IMG/VR virus record: IMGVR_UViG_2695420596_000006
Location: 1-26,618 of that record
Reading direction: 5' to 3' (one strand)
Source: a virus
Lineage: Duplodnaviria; Heunggongvirae; Uroviricota; Caudoviricetes
DNA: 26,618 nucleotides
Part shown: piece after piece, positions 1,184 to 21,770 of the stretch
Layout: every line of letters starts with the position of its first letter
How positions within the stretch are numbered: the stretch's first letter is position 1
Translations under genes and position numbers: made by a program
Notes under the pieces: model-generated
Told to the model about the DNA's origin: nothing
Seen by the model: only the letters and a program-made list of their open reading frames with translations
Databases searched by the model: none

Positions 1184-1666
1184 ATGGAAGAACTTCACTT
1201 TGTTTACATCAATGCAAATGGTCGTATCGGTGTTCACTCTATACAGAGCATCAGTTATAGCGAAAATCATATACAGGGCATTTGTAAGAACACCGATCGA
1301 ATAAAAACCTTCCGAAAAGACCGCATTCTTAAACAGTACGATTCACCAGAACAAGCCATTCAGGAATGCGCGTCATTCCTCCCCGAAAGCTACTCACATC
1401 TCACTAAGCAGTCTGGTCCGAAAAAAAATACATTCGATGTGTGTTTCACCGGATTTAAGAAAGCAGATAAAGAAAGATTGGTTGATAAGGCGAATGAACA
1501 AGGATTAACGGTAAGAACCTCTGTAACCCAAAGCCTTCAGATGCTCTGTTGCGGTTACAATGCAGGCCCATCAAAAGTATCGGCAGCCAGGATGAAAGGC
1601 ACAATCATCATAGATGAGCCTGGCTTTATACATTTTCTTGAAACGGGTGAGATCCCAGATGAATAA
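1184..1666 (+). CDS. Small two-domain protein: N-terminal WYL-like domain, C-terminal BRCT-like domain
   Basis: 160-aa ORF, ATG preceded by AAGAGG; N-terminal segment ends in R-x-F-R-x-D-R-I (TFRKDRI), typical of WYL domains; C-terminal FDVCFTGF...GLTVRTSVTQSLQMLCCGYNAGPSKVSAARMKGTIIIDEPGFIHFLE resembles a BRCT fold pattern. Domain calls are by eye. Confidence 0.55.
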   Translation: MEELHFVYINANGRIGVHSIQSISYSENHIQGICKNTDRIKTFRKDRILKQYDSPEQAIQECASFLPESYSHLTKQSGPKKNTFDVCFTGFKKADKERLVDKANEQGLTVRTSVTQSLQMLCCGYNAGPSKVSAARMKGTIIIDEPGFIHFLETGEIPDE

Positions 1667-2348: not shown

Positions 2349-2395
2349 CGTGGTGCTTTCTTTCTTCGCAGGTTCGCGGGTATCTTTCTGCCATT

Positions 2396-2881
2396 CCGTC
2401 AGCCCTGCTCAACGAGTCCGCCACGCTGTTCCGCCGTAAGTATTACATCAACGGCAGCCATGCAGGCTTCATCATGTATATGACCGATGCCGCGCAGAAC
2501 CAGGAGGATGTGAACAACCTCCGCAACGCGATGAAAAGCGCCAAAGGCCCTGGCAACTTCCGCAATCTGTTTATGTACTCGCCTAACGGCAAAAAGGACG
2601 GACTTCAGATTATCCCGTTGTCAGAAGTCGCAGCGAAGGATGAGTTTCTGAATATCAAGAACGTGAGCCGTGATGACATGATGGCTGCGCACCGCGTGCC
2701 GCCGCAAATGATGGGGATTATGCCTAATAATGTCGGGGGATTTGGTGATGTGGAAAAGGCCAGCAAAGTCTTTGTCCGAAACGAGCTAATTCCGCTACAG
2801 AAGCGGCTGCAAGAACTTAACCAATGGGTTGGTGAAGAGGTAGCTCGCTTTGAATCATATTGTCTAGAACCAAGGGAATAA
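2396..2881 (+). pseudogene. Truncated portal protein (P2 gpQ-like) C-terminal fragment
   Basis: Open frame from about 2396 (ALLNESATLFRRKYYINGSHAGFIMYMTD...RVPPQMMGIMPNNVGGFGDVEKASKVF...) resembles the C-terminal part of P2-family portal proteins; no N-terminal part and no upstream start context. Confidence 0.6.
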
Positions 2882-2925
2882 ATGTACTGTTTGTTCAAAT
2901 TGAACACACAGTACTTTTTAATATA

Positions 2926-3765
2926 TTAGATGGCTGGGTTGATGTAATCACCCACGTCATCACCTTGTAGACTAATGTACTCAACCCGCCACTGGTCCAT
3001 TCGCCGTAACGCATACAGACTGAATTCAACGTCAGGAACTGCGTTACAAGACATAAGCGCAATGAGTTCACTTTCAGACGCATCACCATGGTACGTTACA
3101 AAGAACTCTTCAATTTGTGTTGCCGCCTGCTCTGCCTCTGCTCTTGCATCCGGCCCACCATCTATAGAATCATAGACAAGATGAATATTCAGTTCGTAAG
3201 GTACACCTTCCTCTAAATCATTGAAACGATCTTCGCCTAAATCAAAGAATACACCTATCAAATAGACTGAATGTTTGCTAATTATCTTTGCGAGTTCTTT
3301 TTCGAATCTAAATTTCTTTGTGTCGAAAGCTCTTAGCCTACTCTCAAAAACATCAGGAAAGGCAGGTCGCCCATAGCGGGCAGCAAGCCATTGTTTTAAA
3401 CCTTGCTTTTCCTCAGGGGATATTTGGCAAGTAGGGTCACATCCCACACACGTGAAACGTTCTTTATCAATACGAAATTTGTTGTCATGTCTTAGTTCAA
3501 TTGCATTTTGATTCGCGTCACGCGCTTGCTCTAAATGCAAATGCAGAACTCTGGGATGTTTAGCACGTGCATAATTGCTGGCCCCCTTAATGAGAGGGCC
3601 AGCAATAAGCTCAACGCTGGGTTCAGAAGAGCTTTGCAAGTCACAATCATGACTGATCACGACAACTTTAACGCCTATTTCCTCTTCGGTAAGAATACCC
3701 AAAGAAACTGCATCCTCATGCCTAAGAACCTGGCCTTGGCGCCATGCTGTAGCAATATCAACCAT
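2926..3765 (-). CDS. Hypothetical protein, third gene of cargo operon (279 aa)
   Basis: ORF with ATG 10 nt after the stop of the upstream gene; no motif I can assign; not recognisable as a P2/186 phage protein. Confidence 0.7.
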   Translation of the reverse strand: MVDIATAWRQGQVLRHEDAVSLGILTEEEIGVKVVVISHDCDLQSSSEPSVELIAGPLIKGASNYARAKHPRVLHLHLEQARDANQNAIELRHDNKFRIDKERFTCVGCDPTCQISPEEKQGLKQWLAARYGRPAFPDVFESRLRAFDTKKFRFEKELAKIISKHSVYLIGVFFDLGEDRFNDLEEGVPYELNIHLVYDSIDGGPDARAEAEQAATQIEEFFVTYHGDASESELIALMSCNAVPDVEFSLYALRRMDQWRVEYISLQGDDVGDYINPAI

Positions 3766-3775
3766 AAATGACTAT

Positions 3776-4417
3776 CTACTCCTTCATTCCTGAACCAGGT
3801 ATAGAAACAGACGACATCCACCCGTCAGTTGGCGTGCTTTTGCTCCCAGTTAAATTCGCTTTTACACCTGCAATTTTAAGCTGGCGAGCTTCATCGATTA
3901 AGAGATTCACAGACGACTTCCAGTCATCGCCTCGCTTAATCAAATCAATAATAGATAAGCCGTCAAACGCTTTCATTTTTGACATCAACTTAGCATTTTC
4001 TACTCCTGCTTTGTTAAAGCGATCGGCTAATCTACTGAGTTCAATGATGTAACCAGCTTTCCCAATATCATCAGGCTGACTGTCACCGGATAACCATTTG
4101 TATAATGCTTGCCTAGTAATACCCAAATCTTTAGCCAGTTCTGACATTGATGGAGAAAGAGTATCCCTAACATTACTTAAATGTTCTGAAATTGTCCTGA
4201 TATCAACAGGGTCATTATCTGTATCCCCATGATTTTCAAGTTTAGATAACCCAAAATGGACTTTAGGTTGTACAAAACCACGCCACTGGTTTACATCCTT
4301 CACAGAATAGCTCGCTCCTGTTCCACTCAGGAACATAGAGGTTGCAACAAATAACGCTCCAGCAATAGGAGCTAAACCAGGAGTCCCATAGCAACTACCA
4401 GTCATGGATTGACGCAT
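3776..4417 (-). CDS. Hypothetical protein with central helix-turn-helix motif, second gene of cargo operon (213 aa)
   Basis: Start set at the ATG preceded by GGGGAGGTG (ORF track start 4444 would overlap the upstream gene); hydrophobic N-terminal segment (GLAPIAGALFVATSMFLSGTGA) and an XRE-like HTH (MSELAKDLGITRQALYKWLSG). Confidence 0.65.
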   Translation of the reverse strand: MRQSMTGSCYGTPGLAPIAGALFVATSMFLSGTGASYSVKDVNQWRGFVQPKVHFGLSKLENHGDTDNDPVDIRTISEHLSNVRDTLSPSMSELAKDLGITRQALYKWLSGDSQPDDIGKAGYIIELSRLADRFNKAGVENAKLMSKMKAFDGLSIIDLIKRGDDWKSSVNLLIDEARQLKIAGVKANLTGSKSTPTDGWMSSVSIPGSGMKE

Positions 4418-4434
4418 ATTACACCTCCCCGGTG

Positions 4435-5241
4435 TTATACCCACCTATTAATGGCATGTTGGGATACCATTTTATTAAAGCTTTCCTTTACAACACCATG
4501 TAGTGAATTGAACTGTTGCTCAATTGAATCTATTTCTGGCGGCATGTTTCCTTCAACATAATGGTCTGTATCAATAATTCCATGCCAAAGAGCCTTGTCG
4601 CTCCTGAACCGCTCAAGCATTTCAACCCCAAAGGGCAAGATATCTGGAGGAAAACTCAACTGACCAAACATCTTATGCAAACGAGTTACTAAAAAGCCAG
4701 TACTTATAACAGGACCAACATTTGTTTGGAAAACCATCTCGTTAACCGATTGTATCGGAGATAAATCCAAATCTACACCATGTAAGCCATTGCAAAGGTA
4801 CTGCTCAATCTTTTCACCCTCACTAGGTATTACGGCATCCAGATACCTCAAACCAAGTCTTGTCAAAAGGGCTGGGTTAGCATGTTCTATTACGACAGAC
4901 AATCCTTCCATCAATGCTTTAAAGAACGGTTCATGTTCTTTGTAATCAGTCGTCTGGAAAGTAATAAAATCGTTACCCAAGACAAAACCTGAAGTCTTAG
5001 TGATGTCAGACATATACCACTGCTGGACCATTTCAAAAGATGGCTGAGGCGATTCACCGGGCGTATTAACATCAAACACCATTTGCATTGCCTCTCTTCT
5101 TTCAAAGAGTGGATAGCCCCTTAAACGCAATGCTTCCTGAATGTCATCGACATACTTTTTCATCGCCTTGATAGGCGTAAACTTAACTTGCGCCAGCACA
5201 TAGTATACGGGTGCATTGGACATGCGATTGCTGTCACTCAT
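4435..5241 (-). CDS. Hypothetical protein, first gene of cargo operon (268 aa)
   Basis: ATG preceded by TAGGAGGG with 4-nt spacer; a long soluble-looking ORF with no motif I can assign confidently. Confidence 0.7.
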   Translation of the reverse strand: MSDSNRMSNAPVYYVLAQVKFTPIKAMKKYVDDIQEALRLRGYPLFERREAMQMVFDVNTPGESPQPSFEMVQQWYMSDITKTSGFVLGNDFITFQTTDYKEHEPFFKALMEGLSVVIEHANPALLTRLGLRYLDAVIPSEGEKIEQYLCNGLHGVDLDLSPIQSVNEMVFQTNVGPVISTGFLVTRLHKMFGQLSFPPDILPFGVEMLERFRSDKALWHGIIDTDHYVEGNMPPEIDSIEQQFNSLHGVVKESFNKMVSQHAINRWV

Positions 5242-5350
5242 GTCGCCCTCCTAATTTTAAAATCCATCAATAACGTTCTTTTCAATATAGTTTACATCTT
5301 GGTTGACACATTAACCATAACAAAGTTCCATCAAAACATCTTTTGATAAC
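5242..5350 (-). promoter_or_regulatory. Putative promoter/operator region of the three-gene cargo operon
   Basis: AT-rich; on the minus strand TTAATG-N19-TATATT precedes the RBS; 7-bp inverted repeat ATCAAAA-CATC-TTTTGAT at 5330..5347 may be an operator. Confidence 0.35.
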
Positions 5351-5440
5351 TTTATATTTAAACTACCGGGCGCGCGCTCGTATCCCCGCCACGCCTGCCC
5401 GCTTTATGTAGTGGTTTTCATGCACCTGCATGATCTACGC

Positions 5441-5466
5441 AAAAGCCCGCCAGTTCTGGCGGGCCT
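5441..5466 (-). terminator. Rho-independent terminator (minus strand) downstream of dinI-like gene
   Basis: GCCCGCC-AGTTCT-GGCGGGC hairpin; on the minus strand it is followed by TTTTG. Confidence 0.65.
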
Positions 5467-5599
5467 TAGCAAAAACGATCCTCAAACGATCATGCGATCT
5501 CATGCGGCATAGACATGCACTACAGAGCTAACGCCTCGCAAGGGCTCGTTGTTCAACCTTGCTGACGCCAGAAGCAAGTTCAGACGCCAGCAACGTTTC

Positions 5600-5833
5600 T
5601 TAATGCAGCCAGCTGTCGTCTTCCCACACCTTCTGCATAATTTTCATCACTTGTTTTCTTTCTTCGTCCTGTTGCAGCCCAGTCAGTTCCACACCGTTAG
5701 AGCTACCTTTGCGGATACGAATTACCGTTTTTGGATACAGTGGGCGCAGATTGCGGTAAAGCTCGGATTCAAGGGCGTCCAGGGTAGACTGGCTAATCTT
5801 CTGCTCTTTATCGATCATTATTTCAATGCGCAT
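5600..5833 (-). CDS. dinI: DinI-family protein
   Basis: 77-aa product from internal Met with GAGGTG RBS: MRIEIMIDKEQKISQSTLDALESELYRNLRPLYPKTVIRIRKGSSNGVELTGLQQDEERKQVMKIMQKVWEDDSWL, matching the DinI pattern (MRIEV...AL..EL..R....P...V.V........V.G...E.K..I..IL.E.WE..D.W). Confidence 0.85.
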   Translation of the reverse strand: MRIEIMIDKEQKISQSTLDALESELYRNLRPLYPKTVIRIRKGSSNGVELTGLQQDEERKQVMKIMQKVWEDDSWLH

Positions 5834-5843
5834 AAAAGTCACC

Positions 5844-6032
5844 TCAGCTGATGACATCCATTGAGCGGTTGTATTCGTGGCTTCTGATTTTTGCCATGAG
5901 TTCATCAGTCAATTCAGAAACCCACTGCAGAGCCAGCCCCTTCTCTTCATCACTACACTCACTAGCCGCTACAAGCTTAAGAAAAAAATCAATGCGCTGG
6001 AGCTTCAAAGACTCCAAAAAATAGTCCTGCAT
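5844..6032 (-). CDS. Hypothetical small phage protein (start uncertain; ORF extends to 6134)
   Basis: Internal ATG at 6032 preceded by AGGAGG; no recognisable motif. Confidence 0.4.
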   Translation of the reverse strand: MQDYFLESLKLQRIDFFLKLVAASECSDEEKGLALQWVSELTDELMAKIRSHEYNRSMDVIS

Positions 6033-6185
6033 CTTTCCTCCTATGACACCACAAGCAACACTGTATGCATAACCACTGTTTATATTTACAGCATATAATA
6101 ATCTTACTGATGTAAAACGTTTTTTTACGTTCATCAGCCTGATATGCCTGGTATTATTAAGAGCACGAATTGTTAACCCGCGTAA

Positions 6186-7232
6186 TTAATACAGGTTTCG
6201 CCACTTATCATCTTCCTGCAAACGCTGGTTCCGATAGAAGATACGCAGGCCTGCTCCTGACGGAATACTGCCGCCGCGAAGGAGTAAATCGACCTCTTTC
6301 TCGCTGCCATCAAATCCTCTGGACTTCAGTTCGTAGACGAGCTGCTGTCGCTGATGGTCTGTAATTCGCTGTTTGTAGTCTTTACGCCGTTTCGGTTTCA
6401 CCAGGCGTAACCTTGCAGCCAGTTCCCGGCGCTCTTTTTTGCTCATACTGTGCAGGTAATCGTGCAACTCCTTGTCATCCATGCGGGTAATGTCCGTCCT
6501 GGTATCCCCATCAGCTGATTTGTCTTTCCCTTGTTGGTTCAAATTTTCAGCAAGGGGACAGTTATTGCCACGAGTCCAAGGGGCGCAAGCGCCCTGGTCG
6601 GCTGACCGATGTTCAAGAACGGATGCCAGGTGATACTGGTCATCTTCAGTGAAACCATCAGTGTGATAGCCGGAAAACGTACCGTCATACGGCGGATCGC
6701 AATACACCACATCTCCCGCCTTCAACATCGCCAGCGTTTCATCAAAGCTGGCGCAGATAAACGTTGCTCGCTGGGCTTTTTCTGCAAATGTGCGAAGTTC
6801 TTTTTCAGGGAAATACGGATTTTTATAATTACCGTAGGGAATGTTGAAATGCCCGCTCTTGTTATAGCGACATAAACCACGGTAACCGTGACGATTGAGA
6901 TACAGGAAATATACCGCTTTCATGAAATCAGTAATTTCAGTGGAGTAATTAAACTCCTGCCTTATGTTGTAATAAGCCACCTCCCTGTTTGCGATCTCAA
7001 ATAAAACTCTGGCGCGAGATATAAACGATTCACAATCAGCGGCAACCTTTTTATAGAGGTTGATTAAATCAGGATTAATATCCGCAACCAGATAGCTGGG
7101 GTAATCCGTCTCCATCATCACAGCACAAGAACCCGCGAAAGGTTCAACCAGTCGCGGGCCAGCAGGAAGGTGTTTTTTCAGTTCGGACATAATGGCGGTT
7201 TTATTACCCGCCCATTTCAGGATGGTGCTCAT
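6186..7232 (-). CDS. dam: DNA adenine (N6) methyltransferase, Dam family, with C-terminal charged extension
   Basis: Start at [11 protein letters not shown] with AGGAGG RBS; motifs KWAGNK near the N-terminus and DPPY ([10 protein letters not shown]) are the Dam signature; roughly 100 residues of lysine/arginine/glutamate-rich sequence follow the methylase core. Confidence 0.85.
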
Positions 7233-7531
7233 ACAGCACCTCCTGCAATAACATATCCTAAAGCTTCTAATGGGGTTAATGAGCGAATTGATAGCATCAC
7301 CCATTGTTCTGAAACTGCCATGACGTCATTAACCGGAAGCACATGAGAGATAACCGCGGCCCATTCCCTACCCGTAAATACGCCATGCTTCCATTCGCAA
7401 AGAGAAAGAACATCACCAACTTTATAGCCACGATCGTCTTTACGAAGTTCAGCCGTCTTTTGACCTGCAACCACAGCGTTGAAATACTTAGGTGCAATTT
7501 TTAATTGATGGATACGCACAGCCCCTGTCAT
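7229..7531 (-). CDS. Hypothetical phage protein, ASCH/DUF3850-like
   Basis: Start at [42 protein letters not shown] with GGAGGTG RBS; the pattern resembles ASCH-like beta-barrel proteins found in prophages; assignment by eye only. Confidence 0.55.
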
Positions 7532-11381: not shown

Positions 11382-12413
11382 ATGGAAAAAAGCATTAGCA
11401 CATTTATGTACCTATCCGTTTTATTAGGTTGTATATTCTTATTTATAAAATATCGACTTTATGTTCTCGATCATAGAAGCTTGTTCCAACAACCCTTGTT
11501 CTGGGCTGCAATAGGCCTACCTTTATTCACCAGCCTTTACTTTGGTTCTTTTGTCTGGATAGATAAAATACACTCTTTTAGTCTTACAAGTCACGGTTAT
11601 GAGAGATTTTTAGATATCTCGAAATTACCATTACTCATCCTTGCATCTGCAGTACCTTTAGTTTCAATAGTAAACAACCTACACAGAACCAAACAAACAG
11701 AAAAACAGATCTCAGAGGCAGAAAGGAAAAACAGGGTAGATTTATATTACAACCACATGAAATTTCATCTTGATTTATATAAAAAAATCGAAGGAAAAAG
11801 AATAGGCAGCTACTACCCGGTTCAGGAAGCTCAAGCTGAAGCAATCTACCAACATTTTATAAAACATCCACAAGAACTATATAGAAAAGCATACCCACAA
11901 TCTACGCCTGATGATTCTCAACAATTAGATATTAATGAGCAATTTGTTATTGATTTACACAAATGTTGGGTAGAAATCAACGCAAGACTCAAGCAATTAT
12001 CCGAGAGTGAAAATCAAATACATCCTACAGAGGAACTTTGCACAACAAAGATGAGAATATTTGTAGGCGTTATGATTATTTATGAAAAAACTTGTAAACT
12101 GTTGTGTTTAGGTGGATTTCATTATAAAAAGTCATTTGTAATAAATGATAGTTATAATAAATACCAAGTTTATTCACCATTTTATGATTTTGGCACTCTG
12201 TACGAATCACTGCAATCCTTAGAAGAGATAACCTACGCCTTCTTGGATACTTGCAGAAATGAAGTGGTAAACTTGTACTTCCCTATAGAAGATAAAATTT
12301 TGATATATGGTGAAGGGATTCTAGAGAATTGGTTCAAGTATTCTCAGTTCTTGATCACTATAGCTTATCAACCCGCCAAGATGTCTCGCTTACCCCAGCT
12401 GAGACGCGATTGA
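11382..12413 (+). CDS. Hypothetical membrane-anchored protein (343 aa), moron gene between int and att
   Basis: ATG 2 nt after the int stop (TGA-TA-ATG); three hydrophobic segments in the first ~100 residues then a ~240-residue soluble domain with no motif assigned; visibly more AT-rich than neighbouring phage genes. Confidence 0.65.
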   Translation: MEKSISTFMYLSVLLGCIFLFIKYRLYVLDHRSLFQQPLFWAAIGLPLFTSLYFGSFVWIDKIHSFSLTSHGYERFLDISKLPLLILASAVPLVSIVNNLHRTKQTEKQISEAERKNRVDLYYNHMKFHLDLYKKIEGKRIGSYYPVQEAQAEAIYQHFIKHPQELYRKAYPQSTPDDSQQLDINEQFVIDLHKCWVEINARLKQLSESENQIHPTEELCTTKMRIFVGVMIIYEKTCKLLCLGGFHYKKSFVINDSYNKYQVYSPFYDFGTLYESLQSLEEITYAFLDTCRNEVVNLYFPIEDKILIYGEGILENWFKYSQFLITIAYQPAKMSRLPQLRRD

Positions 12414-12529
12414 TGATGGCGACATTTTGGCGGCAGAGCTTTAAAAACAGATAAAACTGTCAAACACCACATAACACTAACGTATTGTTTTTAAACATAA
12501 ATCATTATTTTTTCTGTAGTAAAAATGGT

Positions 12530-12574
12530 ATGTAGGAATTTCGGACGCGGGTTCAACTCCCGCCAGCTCCACCA
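12530..12574 (+). repeat. 45-bp ssrA 3'-end core (att site copy 2)
   Basis: Exact repeat of 1016..1060; the preceding bases diverge from ssrA. Confidence 0.9.
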
Positions 12575-12608
12575 ATTTTTGATATATTGAAGTTCAGTGA
12601 AGTCTATC

Positions 12609-12643
12609 AAGCCCGCATGGAACCAGCCTTGCGGGCTTTTTTA
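12609..12643 (+). terminator. Rho-independent terminator downstream of the second ssrA-end copy
   Basis: AAGCCCGCA-loop-TGCGGGCTT hairpin followed by TTTTTTACG. Confidence 0.7.
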
Positions 12644-12740
12644 CGTCTATAGTAGTCTACCGAGAATTGCTAGAATCTACTCGTTATGGCACCCTTTTTG
12701 GGACCCAACACAAAGGGTCCAAAACATGAGGGTCCCAAAC

Positions 12741-13970
12741 ATGGCAAAAATCGCTAAGAAGCTCACTGACACTGAAATCAAAAGCACCAAACCTGCCGAG
12801 AAAGAGGTTAACCTTTTTGACGGCGATGGTTTGCTCCTGCGAATCGCCCCCTTAGCGAAGGGAGGAAAGAAAAATTGGTATTTCAGATATGCAGTGCCTG
12901 TGACCAAAAAGCGAACTAAGGTGAGCTTAGGAACCTATCCTCACCTTACACTTGCGAAGGCACGAGCTTTACGTGATGAGTACTTGTCGTTGCTTGCAAA
13001 TGGTATAGACCCACAAGTTCATAACACCCACAAAGCCAATGCCCTTAAGGATGCAACGGAACATACATTTCAAGCAGTAGCCAAGAAGTGGCTTGATGAG
13101 AAAGTCAAAACGTCAGGCATCTCCCAGGATCATGCTAACGACATCTGGCGAAGCCTAGAGAGAAATATCTTTCCAACGTTGGGTGATACCCCCATTAAGG
13201 AGATTCGCCCTAAAATGCTTAAACAGCATTTAGACCCCATAGAAAAACGAGGTGTCCTTGAAACACTTCGCCGCGTCATATCCCGCCTGAATGAAATTTT
13301 CCGCTATGCAGCAACAGAAGAACTCATAGAATTCAATCCGGCTGACAACCTGGGGCAACGGTTCAGCAAGCCAAAAAAACAGAATATGCCAGCATTACCC
13401 CCTTCCGAACTCCCCCGCTTCCTGGTTGCTCTAAACAATGCTTCTATCCGTTTAGAAACAAGGCTACTGATTGAGTGGCAACTTCTCACATGGGTTCGCC
13501 CTGGTGAAGCTGTTCGCACAAGATGGTCAGATATTGATATAGAAACCAGCATGTGGAACATCCCGGCGGAGTTTATGAAAATGAAGAAGCCTCACAAAGT
13601 TCCACTGAGCAAAGAATCTTTGCGAGTCTTGGATTCAATGAAAGCCATCAGCGGGCATAGAGAGTGGGTTTTTCCCAGTATCAAAGCTCCACTCAATCAC
13701 ATGCATGAACAAACAGCTAATGCGGCTATAATCCGTATGGGCTTCGGAGGTGAGCTTGTAGCTCATGGTATGCGATCAATCGCTAGAACGGCGGCTGAGG
13801 AGTGTGGCAAGTTTAGAACTGATGTCTTAGAAGCCGCCCTTGCCCACTCGAAAAAAGATGAAATAATTGCAGCCTACAATCGTGCAGAGTATCTCACAGA
13901 ACGTGTGGTTCTCATGCAATGGTGGAGTGACTATGTTTCGTCTCAAAAATACAAAGTTATTGCCGCATAA
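12741..13970 (+). CDS. int: Tyrosine integrase, P4/CP4-57 type
   Basis: Start at MAKIAKKLTDTEIKSTKP (ORF track begins further upstream at 12597, inside the terminator); N-terminal arm-binding pattern and C-terminal H-x-x-R ... Y region (HGMRSIARTAAEE ... IIAAYNRAEYLTER). Confidence 0.88.
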   Translation: MAKIAKKLTDTEIKSTKPAEKEVNLFDGDGLLLRIAPLAKGGKKNWYFRYAVPVTKKRTKVSLGTYPHLTLAKARALRDEYLSLLANGIDPQVHNTHKANALKDATEHTFQAVAKKWLDEKVKTSGISQDHANDIWRSLERNIFPTLGDTPIKEIRPKMLKQHLDPIEKRGVLETLRRVISRLNEIFRYAATEELIEFNPADNLGQRFSKPKKQNMPALPPSELPRFLVALNNASIRLETRLLIEWQLLTWVRPGEAVRTRWSDIDIETSMWNIPAEFMKMKKPHKVPLSKESLRVLDSMKAISGHREWVFPSIKAPLNHMHEQTANAAIIRMGFGGELVAHGMRSIARTAAEECGKFRTDVLEAALAHSKKDEIIAAYNRAEYLTERVVLMQWWSDYVSSQKYKVIAA

Positions 13971-14252
13971 CTCTTCCATGATGGGTTAACTATCTTGATT
14001 TATTTGAAGAATTAATGATCACACCATTAACCTATGTGGACTAAGCATAGCCATTTACAAATGGGTACCTTGAGGCCAAATAACGAAAGCTGTCGGTCAT
14101 ATCAGCTAAATAATTCACATCTCTTCTCGATTATCATACACCTCGAAGAACTACCAAATTCGCTCTAATCAATGATAAAACAGTTGAATTCGGTTAAAAT
14201 TTGATCAATTTTATCCTCTACATTGTATTGAATCATCCATGAGGTTTTGTGC

Positions 14253-15809
14253 ATGGCTAGCGGAAATGAAAAAAATCATAGAGTTAGGGTCGCACAGTAC
14301 TTGAGGATGTCTACCGACCATCAGCAATATTCTTTACATAATCAGTCTGAATATATCAAAGATTATGCTGAAAAGAACAATATGGAAATCGCTTATACCT
14401 ACGATGATGCAGGTAAGAGCGGAGTCAGTATCGTAGGCAGGCATTCTTTGCAGCAGTTACTTAGCGATGTAGAACAAAAGAAAATAGATATACAGGCTGT
14501 ATTATTTTATGATGTGAGCCGTTTTGGTCGTTTTCAAAATAGTGATGAAGCTGCATATTATTCCTTTCTATTTGAAAGAAATGGTGTAGATCTTATATAT
14601 TGTTCCGAACCTATACCCACTAAAGATTTCCCTTTAGAGTCCTCTGTTATACTGAATATAAAAAGATCAAGTGCTGCATATCACAGCAGGAATCTATCTG
14701 AAAAGGTATTTATAGGGCAAGTAAATTTAATAAAGCTTGGTTATCATCAAGGCGGTATGGCTGGTTATGGGCTGAGACGTCTTTTAGTAGACGAAAATGG
14801 CATAGCTAAAGAAATATTGAATTTCCGCAAAAGAAAGAGTATTCAAACAGATAGGGTAATATTAATTCCGGGACCAAAAAATGAAATAAAAATTGTAAAT
14901 AGAATCTATGATCTCTTTATAGATAGTAACGTCCCAGAATTCATTATTGCTGAGAGATTAAATGAACAGAGCATACCTGCAGAAAATGGAACATCATGGA
15001 CTCGTGCAAAAATACATCAAATTTTGACAAATGAAAAATATATTGGAAACAACATATATAACAAAACCTCATCTAAACTAAAAAGTAAGCTTGTAAAAAA
15101 CCCCAAACATGAATGGATTAGATGTGACAAGGCATATAAACCAATTATTTCAAAGAAAAAATATAATAAAGCTCAAGAAATAATTCAGCTCCGATCCATT
15201 CATTTGACTAATGAAGATCTATTAGAAAAGCTAAAAGAAAAATTAGAATCTAATGGAAAACTATCAGGCTTTATCATTGATGAAGATGATACAGGCCCTT
15301 CATCTTCTGTTTATAGAACCCGATTTGGTGGTCTTTTAAGAGCATATACTTTGATTGGTTATAAGCCAGAACATGATTACAGCTATCTCCAAATAAATGA
15401 AGCACTAAGATCATTTTACTCAGAGATAATTGAGGATTTTAAGGGCGAAATATTAAAAAGTAACTGTCATATAGACGAGTATAAATATTACCCAATGCTT
15501 TACATCAATGATGAGTTTTTAATTTCCGTCCTTGTTACTAAATGCATACATATGAAATCAGGTAAACTTAGATGGAAAGTCCGGTTTGATAACTCACAGA
15601 AAGCAGACATAACAATTGTTATACGAATGAATTCACAAAATATTTCACCTCTTGATTTTTATATCATACCAAAGATTGAAAACGAATATAGTAAAATGTG
15701 TATGATGGAAACAAACAACATTCGGTTAGATCTCTATAGATTTGATAATCTTGATAAATTTCTACAAATTATTACTCGCATGAAAGTGAGGGAACTATAT
15801 GCTGCCTGA
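14253..15809 (+). CDS. Large serine recombinase (resolvase/invertase catalytic domain plus recombinase domain)
   Basis: Start at ATG with GAGG 8 nt upstream; N-terminal VAQYLRMSTDHQQ...GKSG...VLFYDVSRFGRF is the serine-recombinase catalytic pattern; 518 aa; strongly AT-rich. Confidence 0.8.
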   Translation: MASGNEKNHRVRVAQYLRMSTDHQQYSLHNQSEYIKDYAEKNNMEIAYTYDDAGKSGVSIVGRHSLQQLLSDVEQKKIDIQAVLFYDVSRFGRFQNSDEAAYYSFLFERNGVDLIYCSEPIPTKDFPLESSVILNIKRSSAAYHSRNLSEKVFIGQVNLIKLGYHQGGMAGYGLRRLLVDENGIAKEILNFRKRKSIQTDRVILIPGPKNEIKIVNRIYDLFIDSNVPEFIIAERLNEQSIPAENGTSWTRAKIHQILTNEKYIGNNIYNKTSSKLKSKLVKNPKHEWIRCDKAYKPIISKKKYNKAQEIIQLRSIHLTNEDLLEKLKEKLESNGKLSGFIIDEDDTGPSSSVYRTRFGGLLRAYTLIGYKPEHDYSYLQINEALRSFYSEIIEDFKGEILKSNCHIDEYKYYPMLYINDEFLISVLVTKCIHMKSGKLRWKVRFDNSQKADITIVIRMNSQNISPLDFYIIPKIENEYSKMCMMETNNIRLDLYRFDNLDKFLQIITRMKVRELYAA

Positions 15810-16695
15810 AAAAAATGAATTCCCAATAATTCAAATTGAGATTGCAAAAATAAAATTTCTTAACCCACGAACAAGAAATAAGGTAGTGCATGAAGAAATA
15901 AAGGAAAGCATAAAAAAAAGAGGATTAAGCAAGCCTATAAGCGTAAGAGCTATTGATGAAGACGATTTCAAATATGCTTTAATTTGTGGTCAAGGGAGAA
16001 TAGAGGCTCTTGTTGCATTAGGTGAAACTATTATTCCAGCAATTATAAGAGATGTATCAGAAGAAGATGCTTACGTTATGAGTTTAGTTGAAAACATTGC
16101 AAGGAGAAGACCACGTTCTAATGAGTTATTACAGGTGATTAAAGACATGAAAATCAGAGGACTTTCAGACTCCGAAATAAGTGAGATTACTGGATATTCA
16201 TCGAACTGGGTGAGCAGTATTAATATGCTTCTTGATAAGGGAGAGCATAAACTTCTCTCAGCAGTCGAACGGGGTAATTTGCCTCTGTATCTCGCAGTGC
16301 AATTTGCAAGATGTGAAACTGAGGAAGCACAAGATATTCTTACCGAAGCATATGATAAAAAATTAATAAAAAGTCGGGACATTATAAAGATAAAATACAT
16401 TCTAAATCAAAGAACAGTTGGAAATAAAGGTGCAAAAGCAGCCGGATTTTATTATCACAAACCATCAAAAAGGATGACTGCAGAGGAGTTGATTGAGCTT
16501 TATGAAAATAGTATCGCTGAACATAAATCTGTTTATAACAACTCGAAATTTATAAAAACCAATCTACTAATAATAAATGAGATTTTTAACATCATAATGA
16601 TGAATAAAAGCTTTCAAAATATACTTGAACAAGAGAATCTTTCAGAACTACCATCTCAGATATTAAACCCAGTAAACAAAGAGGTATCAAAATGA
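15799..16695 (+). CDS. ParB/Srx-like N-terminal domain protein (298 aa)
   Basis: Overlaps the recombinase stop by 11 nt; N-terminal IQIEIAKIKFLNPRTRN...SIKKRGLSKPISVRAID...YALICGQGRIEALVALGETIIPAIIRDVSEEDAYVMSLVENIARR matches the ParB N-terminal domain pattern including the G-x-x-R box. Confidence 0.75.
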   Translation: MLPEKNEFPIIQIEIAKIKFLNPRTRNKVVHEEIKESIKKRGLSKPISVRAIDEDDFKYALICGQGRIEALVALGETIIPAIIRDVSEEDAYVMSLVENIARRRPRSNELLQVIKDMKIRGLSDSEISEITGYSSNWVSSINMLLDKGEHKLLSAVERGNLPLYLAVQFARCETEEAQDILTEAYDKKLIKSRDIIKIKYILNQRTVGNKGAKAAGFYYHKPSKRMTAEELIELYENSIAEHKSVYNNSKFIKTNLLIINEIFNIIMMNKSFQNILEQENLSELPSQILNPVNKEVSK

Positions 16696-17588
16696 TTCAG
16701 ATACGTTTTGGCAAAAATTTTATTTACCTGGAAACTAATAAGTTAATTCCATCTAAGGAATTATTAGAAAACGTAAAGCGAAGCCATAAATATCATCAAA
16801 TAGTTACCTCTATCGAAAGCTTGGGTATTATTGAACCAATAATAGTATTCTATGACAAAGATAAAGATGTCACTAAGATACTTGATGGCCATTTAAGGGT
16901 TGAGGCTTTAAAAGACTTAGATATAGAAAAAGCTCCATGTATACTTTCGAGCATAGATGATGCTTTCACTCCTAACAAACAAGTGAATCATATAAATGTA
17001 GTTGAAGAACATAGAATGATAATTAAGTCTCTGGCAAAAGTATCAATTGAAAAACTTAGTGCTGCTTTGGGCATATCTGTTGATGCCATAAAAGATAAAG
17101 CTAATGTGATGAACGGCATAGATCCAAGTGTAATTGCGAAACTTTCTGATAAACCTATACCTAAGGCTACATTTGACGTTTTGAGGAAAATGAAGCCAAT
17201 TCGTCAAATTGAAGCAGTCGGTACAATGATTAATTTTGATAATTATAGTAAAAAATTTGCAATGAGCATCTTGGATGCAACACCGTCATCGATGATAGTA
17301 AATAAAGGGAAAAACACTCCCTATAAAAAGGACATAAAAAAAACCATACTTCGTCTGGAACAAGAAATGGCAACAACTTCGGAAGAAACGAAAAAACTTC
17401 AAACCGAGTATGGTTCAGATATGTTGAAATTCGTTATAATCCAGTCATATATTAATAAATTACTTGGCAACTCTAAAGTTCTTCATTGGTTCTTAGAAAA
17501 CGAGGTTGATTATCTTAATGAGTTAAAAAGAATTTCTAGAATAAATTCTTTGGATGATAAGACTCTTACTGAAAACAGCCAGTCATAG
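16692..17588 (+). CDS. Second ParB/Srx-like domain protein (298 aa)
   Basis: Start overlaps the previous stop (ATGA); N-terminal ...HKYHQIVTSIESLGIIEPIIVFYDKDKDVTKILDGHLRVEALKDL... resembles a ParB-like domain. Confidence 0.65.
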   Translation: MIQIRFGKNFIYLETNKLIPSKELLENVKRSHKYHQIVTSIESLGIIEPIIVFYDKDKDVTKILDGHLRVEALKDLDIEKAPCILSSIDDAFTPNKQVNHINVVEEHRMIIKSLAKVSIEKLSAALGISVDAIKDKANVMNGIDPSVIAKLSDKPIPKATFDVLRKMKPIRQIEAVGTMINFDNYSKKFAMSILDATPSSMIVNKGKNTPYKKDIKKTILRLEQEMATTSEETKKLQTEYGSDMLKFVIIQSYINKLLGNSKVLHWFLENEVDYLNELKRISRINSLDDKTLTENSQS

Positions 17589-18640: not shown

Positions 18641-19546
18641 TTATTTAGATGCTAAAATAGTATTTTTATTGAATTTTTCATCAGCATCTGTAAGCTTTTT
18701 CATTATTAAAGCAGGGGCTATATCCTGAAGCTCCGTAGATTTTATGAAAAAATAATTACAAAGGTAAATTATATTATTAAGATTAATTGGTATATCAATA
18801 TTATAATCTAACATTAACGATAACAAACGATCTCTGTCAATTCTATAAAACTTTTTACCAAGCTCTTTCTCATTAATTATTGAAATTATCTTTTCATCAA
18901 GCTTATCGTCCATTCTCAATCTTAATTTATTTCTTAGCATAGCGGACCATGCGCTTGACTTATAATTTCTATATGCTAAATCCTCAAATAACTTCATTAT
19001 TCCCCAATCAGATGTTTCCAAAGAGGCGTAAATTCCATTCAGCGCGCGACTAAGGTCATTATGCTCAACCCAATCCTCTTTGCACTTATAGCGTAGATCA
19101 TGCTCAACTTCATGCCATCCTTCAGATAAAATAGTTCTAAATTGGACTTCAAAAGTAGTATCAATATAAGAATATTTCTTTAATAAGACACTATCATTTG
19201 ATAATACTTCTGGTAACTTAAAGACGTAATTGCATCGAGTTGCCGCAAAGAGATTAGCCGTGGTTTCGTCTACGGTTTTAGATTCAATTTCGAATAATTT
19301 CTCCAGTGTTTTTTGAGCAATAAATAAATCATCAGGAAAATATAATATTATCCTAACCCCAAATAAGTCTTGAATTTTTTTACCATCCTCTGAGTATTTA
19401 TTAGGCTCTTTTTCATATTTCTTAATTATTGAGCTTTCTGATTTTGTCCTCGAAAAAAAACGATAAAGTAATCCAATACGATTAAGTTCATCTTCTATAT
19501 CTTTTTGCAAACTTTGAATAATTCGCAATTCATTCCCGTTATACAT
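18641..19546 (-). CDS. RelA/SpoT-homologue (RSH) nucleotidyltransferase-fold protein, toxSAS-like (301 aa)
   Basis: Start ATG overlaps the upstream stop (ATGA); contains DLFGVRIILYFPDD and EVQFRTILSEGWHEVEHDLRYK, matching the synthetase-domain motifs D-x-x-G-x-R and E-x-Q-x-R-T...W-x-E...H-x-x-x-Y-K; C-terminal ~140 residues unassigned. Confidence 0.8.
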   Translation of the reverse strand: MYNGNELRIIQSLQKDIEDELNRIGLLYRFFSRTKSESSIIKKYEKEPNKYSEDGKKIQDLFGVRIILYFPDDLFIAQKTLEKLFEIESKTVDETTANLFAATRCNYVFKLPEVLSNDSVLLKKYSYIDTTFEVQFRTILSEGWHEVEHDLRYKCKEDWVEHNDLSRALNGIYASLETSDWGIMKLFEDLAYRNYKSSAWSAMLRNKLRLRMDDKLDEKIISIINEKELGKKFYRIDRDRLLSLMLDYNIDIPINLNNIIYLCNYFFIKSTELQDIAPALIMKKLTDADEKFNKNTILASK

Positions 19547-21651
19547 CAGAAATTCCTCCCAAGAATTGCTTTAATCTCTGATATTCTTGCCATGTTAAGT
19601 TCAAGGAACGAACGCTTGTCTGGCGTAAGTAAAAGACCGTCTTTCCTCAATTTATCTAAAGAATGGAGTATTTCACTTAACTGAAATTGATTGTTGTTAG
19701 AACATAAGCCTTTTATAGGCCGATGCTTATGATAGCTAACACTCCCTCTGGGACAGAACTTCTCTAAGATGTAAATATCACAATCTGTAATATCGTGATC
19801 ATTTTCACTGTTTATCTCGACAGATTTTTTATTAATAGCATCATTGTCACATTCACATCCCAAAAAATAAATATCTTCCCTACCACTTAATTCGTTAAAA
19901 CTACAATCTATAAAAGAACAGTTCACGAATGTAACGTTTTTATAATTACCACAGGTAAATATGCTGCTAAAAAACGAACAATCAACAAAGATAGTATCAT
20001 GTATTATATTTATATCGCCTAAAGAAAGTTTTGATATAGACAATTGCTCAACACTATCATTTTTTAAATCTAATGGAACTTTTCCTATAAGCAAATGACT
20101 ATAAAGGATTTTATCATTACCTGACATAAAATATAAAGCAAACTCTAAGCTATGCCAAAGTAATTCTTTTTCATCATCGATCCTCGGCATATAAGATTGC
20201 ACTGCTGGTTCTATAAAACGTTTATCACCAATCCATTCATTTGACTTATCATTAATAATATTTTCAGAAACAAAATTACCAAGAACAAATTCATTAACAA
20301 ATCCAATACCTTGGTTTTCTGAGCCTGACCGATCTAATAGAGCATGCGATGCTAATTTATTAACTAATTCGTCAGTAGTTGGTCTTTCATCTACAGTATA
20401 AAGCTTTCTTGTAGCCTCCAAGAGTTGTTGATTCTTTTCAGTTATGACTAACGATATATACTCTCTAGACTCAGATGTGTAGTTACCCTCGACCATGTCG
20501 TCAGCTATTATTTTTAGTATAGTATATTGATCTTCAATAGACATTAATAAATCTTGTCTTTTTCTTTCTCGCTCAAGCATTGAATCAAAATACTTCCTCA
20601 CTATAGTTGTTGGGTCGCTTATAACTTTATTAAAGTCGGTGTCGTCGATGCATCTTAGAAATGATAGCAGTACAGGGTTTGATAATTTGTTAAGAGGAAA
20701 TCCTGTCGATGAAATTTCATCTAAACGTTGACCTGGAAGCCAGTCTTCAATTTGTGGTTCATGAATTCTTATTCTTATCACATCAAAATCTTCTTGATGT
20801 GATGCTATCCACTGATGGAATTCATCTCCGTCAAATATAGCTGTTCTTCGAGTTGTCAAAACCACTTTTGCACTATCAGTTAGAAGCTCACTTATTGTTT
20901 CCAGCATTGGCTCTGTTTTTTCATAATTATTTTCAATTCCGTTTGTACTTTCATGCAATAGTTCATCAAACCCGTCAAGTATAACTGGTACATTTCCTGC
21001 TCTTATTTCATTCCTTACTAAGGCTGAGCTTAACAAAGGAAAACTTCTATCAATTTCATCTAATAGTACATACCTGAATATTTTTGCTTGCCTATTCCTT
21101 GATAGTTCTGAAAATAATGGTATTTTCCCTATATTGTTAACTATAATCTCCCTCAATAATTCATACGCCGTGCAAGTCTTTCCAAAACCGGCTGCAGCCT
21201 CAATCAAAAACAGAATTGGACGCCTATGTTGTATTCTCTCTAATATTTCCGTAACAACATTAGCTTCGCCAATAACACCATTTAAGTAATATTTTGAATT
21301 TATGTAGGAATAAGTTGCAGTAGGTGAGTGAATTTTTACAATTGAATCTGTGAAAGTATTATAATCTTTAATCAACCTTTCTTTAGTTGAATCGACGCTA
21401 AAGAAGCCATTAAATAATTCCTTATGTGCTTCTTCATAAGACTGATATTTTTTAATTTGACATGCATAACCTAACTGCCTATATTCTTCAAAGGTTTGAT
21501 TTACATTAACCTCATTATTTAGTGGAAGTATGTCCGCGTTATGGTAGTGCCCTGTTTTAATAGAATATACAGCAATACTTTCGTTACCTGTATTTTCTTC
21601 AGTAAAACCAAACCTTTTATATATCTCTGTAAGTTTGCTTTTTCGTAACAT
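19546..21651 (-). CDS. NACHT-type STAND NTPase with C-terminal pentapeptide-like repeats (about 701 aa)
   Basis: Start at ATG preceded by AGGAGG (ORF track adds 3 codons from a GTG); Walker A LIEAAAGFGKT and Walker B VPVILDGFDELLHE (h-h-h-h-D-G-h-D-E, NACHT-typical); C-terminal FVDCS/FFSSI/FTCGN/YKNVT/FVNCS/FIDCS/FNELS five-residue periodicity; N-terminal ~130 aa unassigned. Confidence 0.8.
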   Translation of the reverse strand: MLRKSKLTEIYKRFGFTEENTGNESIAVYSIKTGHYHNADILPLNNEVNVNQTFEEYRQLGYACQIKKYQSYEEAHKELFNGFFSVDSTKERLIKDYNTFTDSIVKIHSPTATYSYINSKYYLNGVIGEANVVTEILERIQHRRPILFLIEAAAGFGKTCTAYELLREIIVNNIGKIPLFSELSRNRQAKIFRYVLLDEIDRSFPLLSSALVRNEIRAGNVPVILDGFDELLHESTNGIENNYEKTEPMLETISELLTDSAKVVLTTRRTAIFDGDEFHQWIASHQEDFDVIRIRIHEPQIEDWLPGQRLDEISSTGFPLNKLSNPVLLSFLRCIDDTDFNKVISDPTTIVRKYFDSMLERERKRQDLLMSIEDQYTILKIIADDMVEGNYTSESREYISLVITEKNQQLLEATRKLYTVDERPTTDELVNKLASHALLDRSGSENQGIGFVNEFVLGNFVSENIINDKSNEWIGDKRFIEPAVQSYMPRIDDEKELLWHSLEFALYFMSGNDKILYSHLLIGKVPLDLKNDSVEQLSISKLSLGDINIIHDTIFVDCSFFSSIFTCGNYKNVTFVNCSFIDCSFNELSGREDIYFLGCECDNDAINKKSVEINSENDHDITDCDIYILEKFCPRGSVSYHKHRPIKGLCSNNNQFQLSEILHSLDKLRKDGLLLTPDKRSFLELNMARISEIKAILGRNF

Positions 21652-21770
21652 TAAACTCACCTCCTGATATTTTTCGCAATGATGCTATAGTCGCTGTATG
21701 AACTTTTAATATAATATTACAAAAACCATCTACATAGCTACCGCCTAAGCAATAATAGCTATGTAGAGAT
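21652..21770 (-). promoter_or_regulatory. Putative promoter/operator of the NACHT-RSH operon
   Basis: AT-rich upstream region; perfect 11-bp inverted repeat CTACATAGCTA-N15-TAGCTATGTAG at 21730..21766. Confidence 0.35.

Follow-up and report, generated by a model that had tools for sequence, protein, structure and literature searches.

A three-gene cargo operon of a P2-like prophage as a candidate autoregulated, toxin-antitoxin-like conflict module

Introduction

What is the function of a three-gene operon that sits beside the portal gene of a degraded P2-like prophage? The operon occupies positions 2926-5241 of IMG/VR virus record IMGVR_UViG_2695420596_000006, whose whole 26,618-nucleotide stretch we call the window, and its genes encode proteins that we call A, B and C. 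A preliminary description took the trio for a lysogen-expressed defence or exclusion system; its placing of the genes in a hotspot and its statement that they match no known function both hold, and such a role remains a candidate. We give a probability of roughly 45% to the reading that the trio is an autoregulated, tripartite conflict or defence module resembling a toxin-antitoxin (TA) system. We favor this reading because the operon, which is probably autoregulated, combines a helix-turn-helix (HTH) protein with one of predicted toxin fold and with a third partner that is obligatory; it is carried on mobile elements and lies in a defence hotspot.

Three conserved genes travel together

The operon comprises the following features:

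4435-5241, minus strand: gene A, first in the operon, 268 amino acids, a TIGR04255-family protein
3776-4417, minus strand: gene B, the middle gene, 213 amino acids from its ATG, an XRE-type HTH protein
2926-3765, minus strand: gene C, last in the operon, 279 amino acids, a member of an uncurated family
5247-5252, minus strand: Shine-Dalgarno sequence of gene A, AGGAGG, found by inspection of the sequence 5 nt ahead of the ATG

The list of open reading frames (ORFs) and RefSeq, which annotates the same three coding sequences in a 99.7% identical copy, bear out the three tightly spaced, same-strand genes of 268, 213 and 279 amino acids that had been described. The gaps are 17 nt between A and B and 10 nt between B and C, and the module is compact at 2.4 kb. 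An upstream GTG at 4444 is an alternative start for gene B that would yield 222 amino acids; RefSeq uses the ATG. The good ribosome-binding sites credited to all three genes are found at A and B, where strong sites lie 5-6 nt ahead of the start (GGGGAGG at 6 nt for B); that of C is moderate only (AAGGAG at 13 nt). These are real genes and not chance ORFs, because homologues are numerous (dozens to hundreds for each) and the ratio of nonsynonymous to synonymous substitution rates is 0.05-0.10 in each of them, indicating purifying selection.

We scanned one genome per species, which gave 80 loci, and took 47 viral loci from IMG/VR. The A-B-C order and strand are kept in 122 of these 127 further loci, the other five being cut by contig ends. 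The full ordered trio is present at 77 of the 80 genome loci (contig ends cut the remaining three) and at 45 of the 47 viral loci, 31 of which lie beside a P2-type portal gene; identities of the viral copies to C range from 36 to 100%. The hosts belong to about ten phyla, including Pseudomonadota, Nitrospirota, Chloroflexota, Actinomycetota, Chlamydiota, Acidobacteriota, Planctomycetota, Bacteroidota, Omnitrophota and Myxococcota. Judged by gene order and context, the trio appears to be an obligate, horizontally mobile unit. We also checked whether decayed homologues are the norm, and they are the exception: frameshifted or pseudogenised copies are rare (about 5 of 86 loci), and the cargo here is intact. 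Genes split by frameshifts include B in locus L003 (5232-5982), A in L032 (5522-6320) and L072 (5532-6317), and C in L069 (4286-5139).

Elsewhere the trio neighbors mobile-element genes, including integrases, insertion sequence (IS) elements and TniQ, and occasionally known defence genes, namely Hhe, HmaA, BrxR and restriction-modification genes. A Methylomonas copy (L002, 46-4311) adjoins a full-length Hhe helicase-nuclease (PADLOC E 0), and HmaA-type SNF2/NOV_C helicases lie upstream of the trio in three related betaproteobacterial and gammaproteobacterial loci (L039, L045 and L050).

A conserved promoter overlaps direct repeats that B probably binds

Just ahead of gene A we found one further conserved feature:

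5289-5317, minus strand: operon promoter with embedded direct repeats, from the cross-locus consensus; the proposed operator of B

We read this element as a promoter of the sigma-70 type in which direct hexamer repeats overlap the spacer and the -10 hexamer, and the conserved promoter/operator is a new observation. It was missed by a simple sigma-70 scan and emerged from the cross-locus consensus alone: in the consensus of 65 distinct upstream regions, a TTG is placed such that TTGnnn and TAAACT are spaced by 17 bp. In the window, the -35 hexamer is TGGTTA (5312-5317), the 17-bp spacer includes GTCAAC (5302-5307), and the -10 hexamer TAAACT (5289-5294) overlaps GTAAAC (5290-5295). Transcription is predicted to begin at about 5282.

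The exact pattern GTCAAC-N6-GTAAAC has a single match in the 26.6-kb window, at 5290-5307 on the minus strand, compared with 0.10 expected by chance. It is matched in 58 of 86 loci; 57 of these carry one occurrence only, on the gene strand and just 5' of A, and the 58th has a second match elsewhere. A loosened form of the repeat pattern is present in 44 of the 47 viral loci. Across nearly all loci, TGTCAAC-CAnnG-TGTAAACT stands just 5' of gene A, often followed by two further repeats (GACAAC ... GTCAAC).

The obvious candidate for a protein acting at this site is B, named 'helix-turn-helix domain-containing protein' in RefSeq. The HTH noted earlier in the middle protein is present but marginal: PF01381 (HTH_3) matches residues 99-125 of the 222-residue form at E 6e-5, with 23.4 bits against a cut-off of 23, and it also matches four of four B homologues tested. 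In an alignment of 51 sequences, full invariance is limited to R102, Q103 and W108, all of the recognition helix, and to P207 in the tail; Y106, also in the recognition helix, is nearly invariant. The family has a specific N-terminal motif, GTGS..W, and a conserved C-terminal tail, SKxKPxxDWxxxxSIPGS. Because the invariance of the DNA motif matches that of the recognition helix, B probably binds the GTCAAC/GTAAAC repeats and autoregulates the operon.

The HTH of B and the helix that follows weakly resemble the antitoxin MbcA, with E 0.1 and an hhalign probability of 86% across 41 columns. We rejected B as a true DUF2384/MbcA-type antitoxin, as the similarity is weak and partial and there is no Pfam match. 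A membrane-anchored regulator was rejected as well. The hydrophobic N-terminus that had been pointed out does exist in this copy, where the best 19-residue window has a mean Kyte-Doolittle value of 1.56, but this borderline stretch is not a family feature, since only 20 of 51 homologues reach 1.6.

C has a predicted toxin fold and A has invariant polar residues

C, a 'hypothetical protein' in RefSeq, belongs to no curated family and has no sequence relative in the PDB. Its own family is large, with 2079 cluster representatives at E<=1e-3, the best 150 of which are all about 265-290 amino acids long. In the predicted structure, an N-terminal MazF/CcdB-like domain is followed by a linker with the motif LKQWLAARYGRPAFP and a small alpha/beta C-terminal domain; the C-terminal tail, DQWRxEYISL, is conserved and poorly modelled. 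The N-terminal domain is predicted to adopt the SH3-like barrel of this toxin fold, and the best 12 structural matches are all MazF, Kid, CcdB or CptN toxins. Its invariant residues are W8, Q10, H39, D40, C41, D42, E52 and R72, and the linker LKQWLAARYGRPAFP is itself invariant. The similarity is one of predicted structure: no Pfam match to the MazF/PemK family was obtained at E<=1, and hhalign gave 0.3% probability for the C-family profile against a MazF sequence. Among 50,697 deposited phage records there is one relative of C only, a distant one (30% identity over residues 7-197) in Acinetobacter phage MD-2021a (CAKLQH020000048.1, 11970-12542), where it is annotated as uncharacterised.

A scores 161.2 bits with the TIGR04255 profile (cut-off 30; E 3.9e-47), the match spanning positions 1-251 of 252, and its only label in NCBIfam release 20.0 (June 2026) is 'TIGR04255 family protein'. 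The AlphaFold2 (AF2) model (predicted local distance difference test score, pLDDT, 91; predicted template-modelling score, pTM, 0.88) suggests a two-repeat alpha/beta protein with a long antiparallel sheet, and we claim no more than this generic class for the predicted fold. Eleven polar residues are invariant (Y13, Q18, Q35, R39, Y100, R128, R132, D135, E168, D224 and D226), from which we infer that A likely contains a site for catalysis or ligand binding. No close solved structural relative was found, and neither A nor C gave anything significant in sequence and profile searches of the PDB; we took the MacB H-loop and Cas2 matches from these searches, at E>0.2, as chance.

The operon is delimited and fills a variable slot of P2-like prophages

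The flanks of the operon contain these features:

2377-2881, plus strand: 3' fragment of the P2-type portal gene (ORF 2474-2881), from blastn against an intact prophage
2884-2914: hairpin between the convergent portal fragment and gene C, from RNA folding
about 5377-5395, minus strand: cos-like site (GGCGTGGCGGGGATACGAG), upstream of the cargo promoter, found by sequence inspection
5442-5467, minus strand: intrinsic terminator 3' of the DinI-like gene, GGCCCGCCAG-AACU-CUGGCGGGCC followed by UUUU
5600-5833, minus strand: DinI-like gene, from the ORF list (WP_001217575 in the collinear intact prophage), with a dam remnant next to it

The position between the portal fragment and the dinI/dam region is as first described, with the refinement that the cos-like site separates the DinI-like gene from gene A. 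Gene C and the convergent portal fragment are 44 nt apart, and within this gap lies the hairpin at 2884-2914 (-15.5 and -15.2 kcal/mol, z -4.7 and -4.2), followed by UUUUU on the plus strand; it is likely a bidirectional terminator. On the other side, the order going upstream from A is the operon promoter, the cos-like site and the terminator of the DinI-like gene, a strong one (-27.9 kcal/mol, z -4.9) that is predicted to insulate the cargo operon from read-through of the early operon. Given the hairpin downstream of C and the promoter, cos-like site and terminator upstream of A, the trio appears to be a separately delimited transcription unit between portal and cos. An Rfam scan of the window found the transfer-messenger RNA (tmRNA) only and no RNA element in the operon region.

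The window begins with smpB and ssrA (tmRNA, 698-1060), followed by the remnant of a P2/186-like prophage that extends to a partial tmRNA repeat at 12398-12574. Positions 2377-6604 are 99.2% identical to an intact P2-like prophage of Escherichia coli MFDS1001074 (L001), which has the same three genes between portal and DinI. Portal homology starts at 2377, equivalent to L001 11978; the L001 portal coding sequence spans 11445-12482, and the first 533 nt are thus missing here. Comparison with this intact prophage agrees with the description of the element as degraded: the structural genes beyond the portal are all lost, the other edge of that deletion lying inside a gpD fragment, and 2.2 kb of replication gene A (L001 16205-18426) are deleted. 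This second deletion accounts for the ORF at 6186-7304 (minus strand, 372 amino acids), in which the 5' part of a phage dam methylase is fused to the 3' end of replication gene A. It had been argued that the trio survived through selection on the host. This does not follow from retention alone, because the deletion breakpoints simply fall elsewhere.

The variable locus that had been described for P2-like phages is borne out on a larger scale. The portal and DinI flanks are present, with other contents between them, in 1295 of 5426 complete E. coli genomes; the alternative contents are SieB, a SecB-type TAC system, AIPR, CoiA or nothing. The cargo of the window is found at high identity in only one of the 5426 genomes, and any blastn-detectable version in 19. 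Very diverged versions of the trio occupy the same P2 slot, and one such version is in the same slot of an intact Serratia prophage; the proposed comparison with related prophages therefore yielded both the same cargo in an intact element and diverged trios at the same site. Work by Rousset and colleagues (PMC9122126) agrees, having shown experimentally that the P2 portal/cos-proximal locus is a diversity hotspot rich in anti-phage systems, and the trio is cargo of this hotspot. The cos-like site matches the cos regions of the P2 and E1114 sequences in their Table S2A. In P2 itself, according to the sequence in that table, old and tin lie on the opposite side of cos from this cargo; the trio is on the portal side, and the hotspot thus straddles cos.

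The trio resembles several known systems without matching them

Pfam, NCBIfam and PADLOC searches upheld the earlier statement that the three proteins are all unlike the structural, replication and regulatory proteins of P2. PADLOC-DB v2.0.0 (2023; 5027 models) has no family for A or C at E<=1, and for B it returned HTH-level matches only (RmrA and mad1; E 3e-3). We rejected Old/Tin, and any PADLOC-listed system, for want of matches.

The closest relative is a catalogue entry. Among the systems of the E. coli P2 hotspot, Table S5B of PMC9122126 lists #59 (69 occurrences) under the name 'HTH_31', which was taken from a Pfam match. Its three genes are of the same family and in the same slot as the trio, with 57% identity between protein 1 and A and 53% between protein 2 and B; the trio of the window is a rarer variant. 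The exact proteins of the window, WP_042104940 and WP_130055671, are listed in Table S5A of that paper. In the parts of the paper available to us, neither system #59 nor the window proteins appear in the tables of tested systems, S2A and S2B, and they are there as catalogue entries only. The validated system Rst_3HP ('hp + hp + hp', pFR109) is similar in having three genes without annotated domains, the same hotspot and the same type of cos region. It is a different system, and we rejected identity with it: its proteins are 336, 350 and 227 amino acids long and unrelated to the trio (best blastp E 0.48).

Type II TA systems with MazF/Kid/CcdB-fold toxins share the predicted fold of C but not its sequence. 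Compared with these toxins, C, at 279 residues, has a further domain, and the motif conserved in it (SHDCD) is not theirs; its partner is an XRE HTH protein rather than an AbrB or ribbon-helix-helix antitoxin, and a third gene is obligatory. Among the Xre-RES, MbcTA and ParST antitoxins, MbcA (6FKG chain C) can be aligned with the recognition helix of B and the next helix, where VARWTAGQVVPQ..RLIELAYVADAL of B pairs with IYKWLSGESxPE..RIxxLSxxADAF. Unlike systems of the Xre-MbcA-ParS type, however, B has no match to PF09722 or PF20432, and A and C have none to RES.

The TAC systems (HigB-HigA-SecB) are likewise tripartite: a conserved C-terminal extension is found on their antitoxin-like protein, the third member is an accessory protein, and a SecB-type system fills the very same slot in other E. 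coli. In contrast to TAC, the trio has no homology to SecB, HigB or HigA and its gene order differs; a chaperone is one possibility for A. We also compared A with guanidino (arginine) kinases, including McsB; identities were 10-13%, with no sequence-family match, and Foldseek did not recover these enzymes.

A tripartite model and its alternatives

In the model that we favor, the trio would be a self-contained mobile operon with its own promoter and terminators on both sides, carried as cargo of the P2 hotspot and of other genomic islands. B, through its XRE-type HTH, would bind the direct GTCAAC/GTAAAC repeats over the spacer and the -10 hexamer and so autoregulate the operon, as type II antitoxins do. 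C would be the effector, with its MazF/CcdB/ToxN-fold N-terminal domain and invariant H-D-C-D/E/R cluster; the fold and the cluster make nucleic acid, or else a nucleic-acid enzyme, its probable target. B would restrain this putative toxin, possibly via its conserved, seemingly unstructured C-terminal tail. A would be the third, obligatory partner, either an enzyme, as the many invariant Arg, Asp, Glu and Tyr residues on its large antiparallel sheet suggest, or a sensor or chaperone-like adaptor through which a trigger, for example phage infection, would lead to the release of C. The outcome would be growth arrest or abortive infection, either protecting the lysogen population or stabilising the element.

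Anti-phage abortive infection would be the most attractive role for the trio. Taken to its full extent, and only tentatively, this leads to the proposal of an unrecognised, multi-phylum tripartite immune or abortive-infection family, in which B, an XRE repressor/antitoxin on a near-universal GTCAAC-N6-GTAAAC operator, restrains C as a new kind of two-domain, MazF-fold effector, and the enzyme-like A senses infection and sets off the release of C. If true, TIGR04255 would gain its first function, and so would the uncurated family of C with its roughly 2000 clusters. Defence against phage would make the trio a compact, widely distributed addition to the known repertoire. A promoter/operator that is nearly unchanged across about ten phyla is unusual; it offers a simple DNA signature for finding the module and an experimental handle.

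Several observations weigh against this interpretation. B is linked to antitoxins only weakly (E 0.1), operators made of direct repeats are unusual for XRE dimers, and conservation of the motif could partly reflect the -10 element itself. Foldseek searches with A gave matches at low TM-scores only (about 0.27), to AdoMetDC and TBP. Defence genes neighbor the trio at only a few of about 35 surveyed loci, and in Shewanella it is a lone insertion among housekeeping genes. Finally, no PADLOC system matches the trio, and we found no experimental record of it in the literature searched.

The alternative that survives best, although we consider it unlikely, is a pure addiction or stabilisation module, that is, a tripartite TA system that retains the prophage or island and plays no part in phage defence. 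An HTH regulator, a toxin-fold protein and an autoregulated promoter fit it equally, the trio is always found on mobile elements or islands, and it was retained in a prophage stripped of structural and replication genes. However, the slot is a hotspot with rapid turnover of its cargo and is enriched for defence systems, and many TA systems in such slots prove to be anti-phage. Even a function limited to TA-type addiction would still represent a new tripartite architecture with a two-domain MazF-fold toxin.

It is quite unlikely that the trio is an accessory module unrelated to conflict, in which B controls A and C as enzymes of a metabolic, stress or lysogenic-conversion function: the structural neighbors of C are toxins and not metabolic enzymes, no transporter or pathway genes co-occur, and the trio occurs sporadically and in patches across phyla, in E. 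coli in 19 of 5426 complete genomes, with mobile genetic elements as neighbors.

It is very unlikely that the operon works for the phage itself, for example in counter-defence, in excluding superinfecting P2-like relatives or in a role linked to cos and packaging. The operon directly adjoins cos and portal, 31 of the 47 viral loci have the trio beside a P2-type portal, and SieB is among the other cargo of the slot; against this, the same trio and promoter element occur in IS-rich islands, as a lone chromosomal insertion and in phyla where P2-like phages are not expected, and a P2 portal match is lacking at 16 of the viral loci.

That the trio is an already named, characterised system outside the libraries searched is also very unlikely, for although the PADLOC-DB release used dates from 2023 in a fast-moving field and a public catalogue has listed a homologous trio since 2022, a full-text literature search for TIGR04255 and four RefSeq accessions returned no paper, the NCBIfam 20.0 and RefSeq labels for A and C remain generic, and the DefensePredictor paper does not mention the trio in its text and text-form supplements.

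Other features of the window

The remainder of the window contains further candidate cargo and a second mobile element. Between the ssrA attachment end and ogr, an ORF at 1184-1666 (plus strand, 160 amino acids) has no Pfam match, but there is a weak one to the PADLOC candidate PDC-S48 over the 70 C-terminal residues (E 1.8e-7); this may be a second cargo position of the prophage. Beside the other attachment end, directly 3' of the P2-type integrase, an ORF at 11382-12413 (plus strand, 343 amino acids) has no Pfam or PADLOC match; L001 instead has a P-loop NTPase upstream of its integrase.

The P2-like remnant, which is inserted in ssrA, ends on the right at the partial second tmRNA copy, 12398-12574 (plus strand; Rfam 52 bits). 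Directly after this copy, at 12597-13970 (plus strand), is a second integrase of another type (Arm-DNA-bind_3 and Phage_int_M), so that two elements lie in tandem at ssrA. Further on is a low-GC island (about 30%). Its gene pair at 18641-21660 (minus strand) encodes a 704-residue protein, whose N-terminal domain is a NACHT-associated inactive restriction endonuclease (PF22723, E 1e-33), and a 301-residue partner resembling RelA/SpoT nucleotidyltransferases (PF04607, E 3e-15); the pair has no PADLOC system match and looks like a candidate conflict system. The same island contains, at 14247-17588 (plus strand), a large serine recombinase (Resolvase and Recombinase domains) followed by two consecutive ParB_N/RepB-like proteins of 298 amino acids each.

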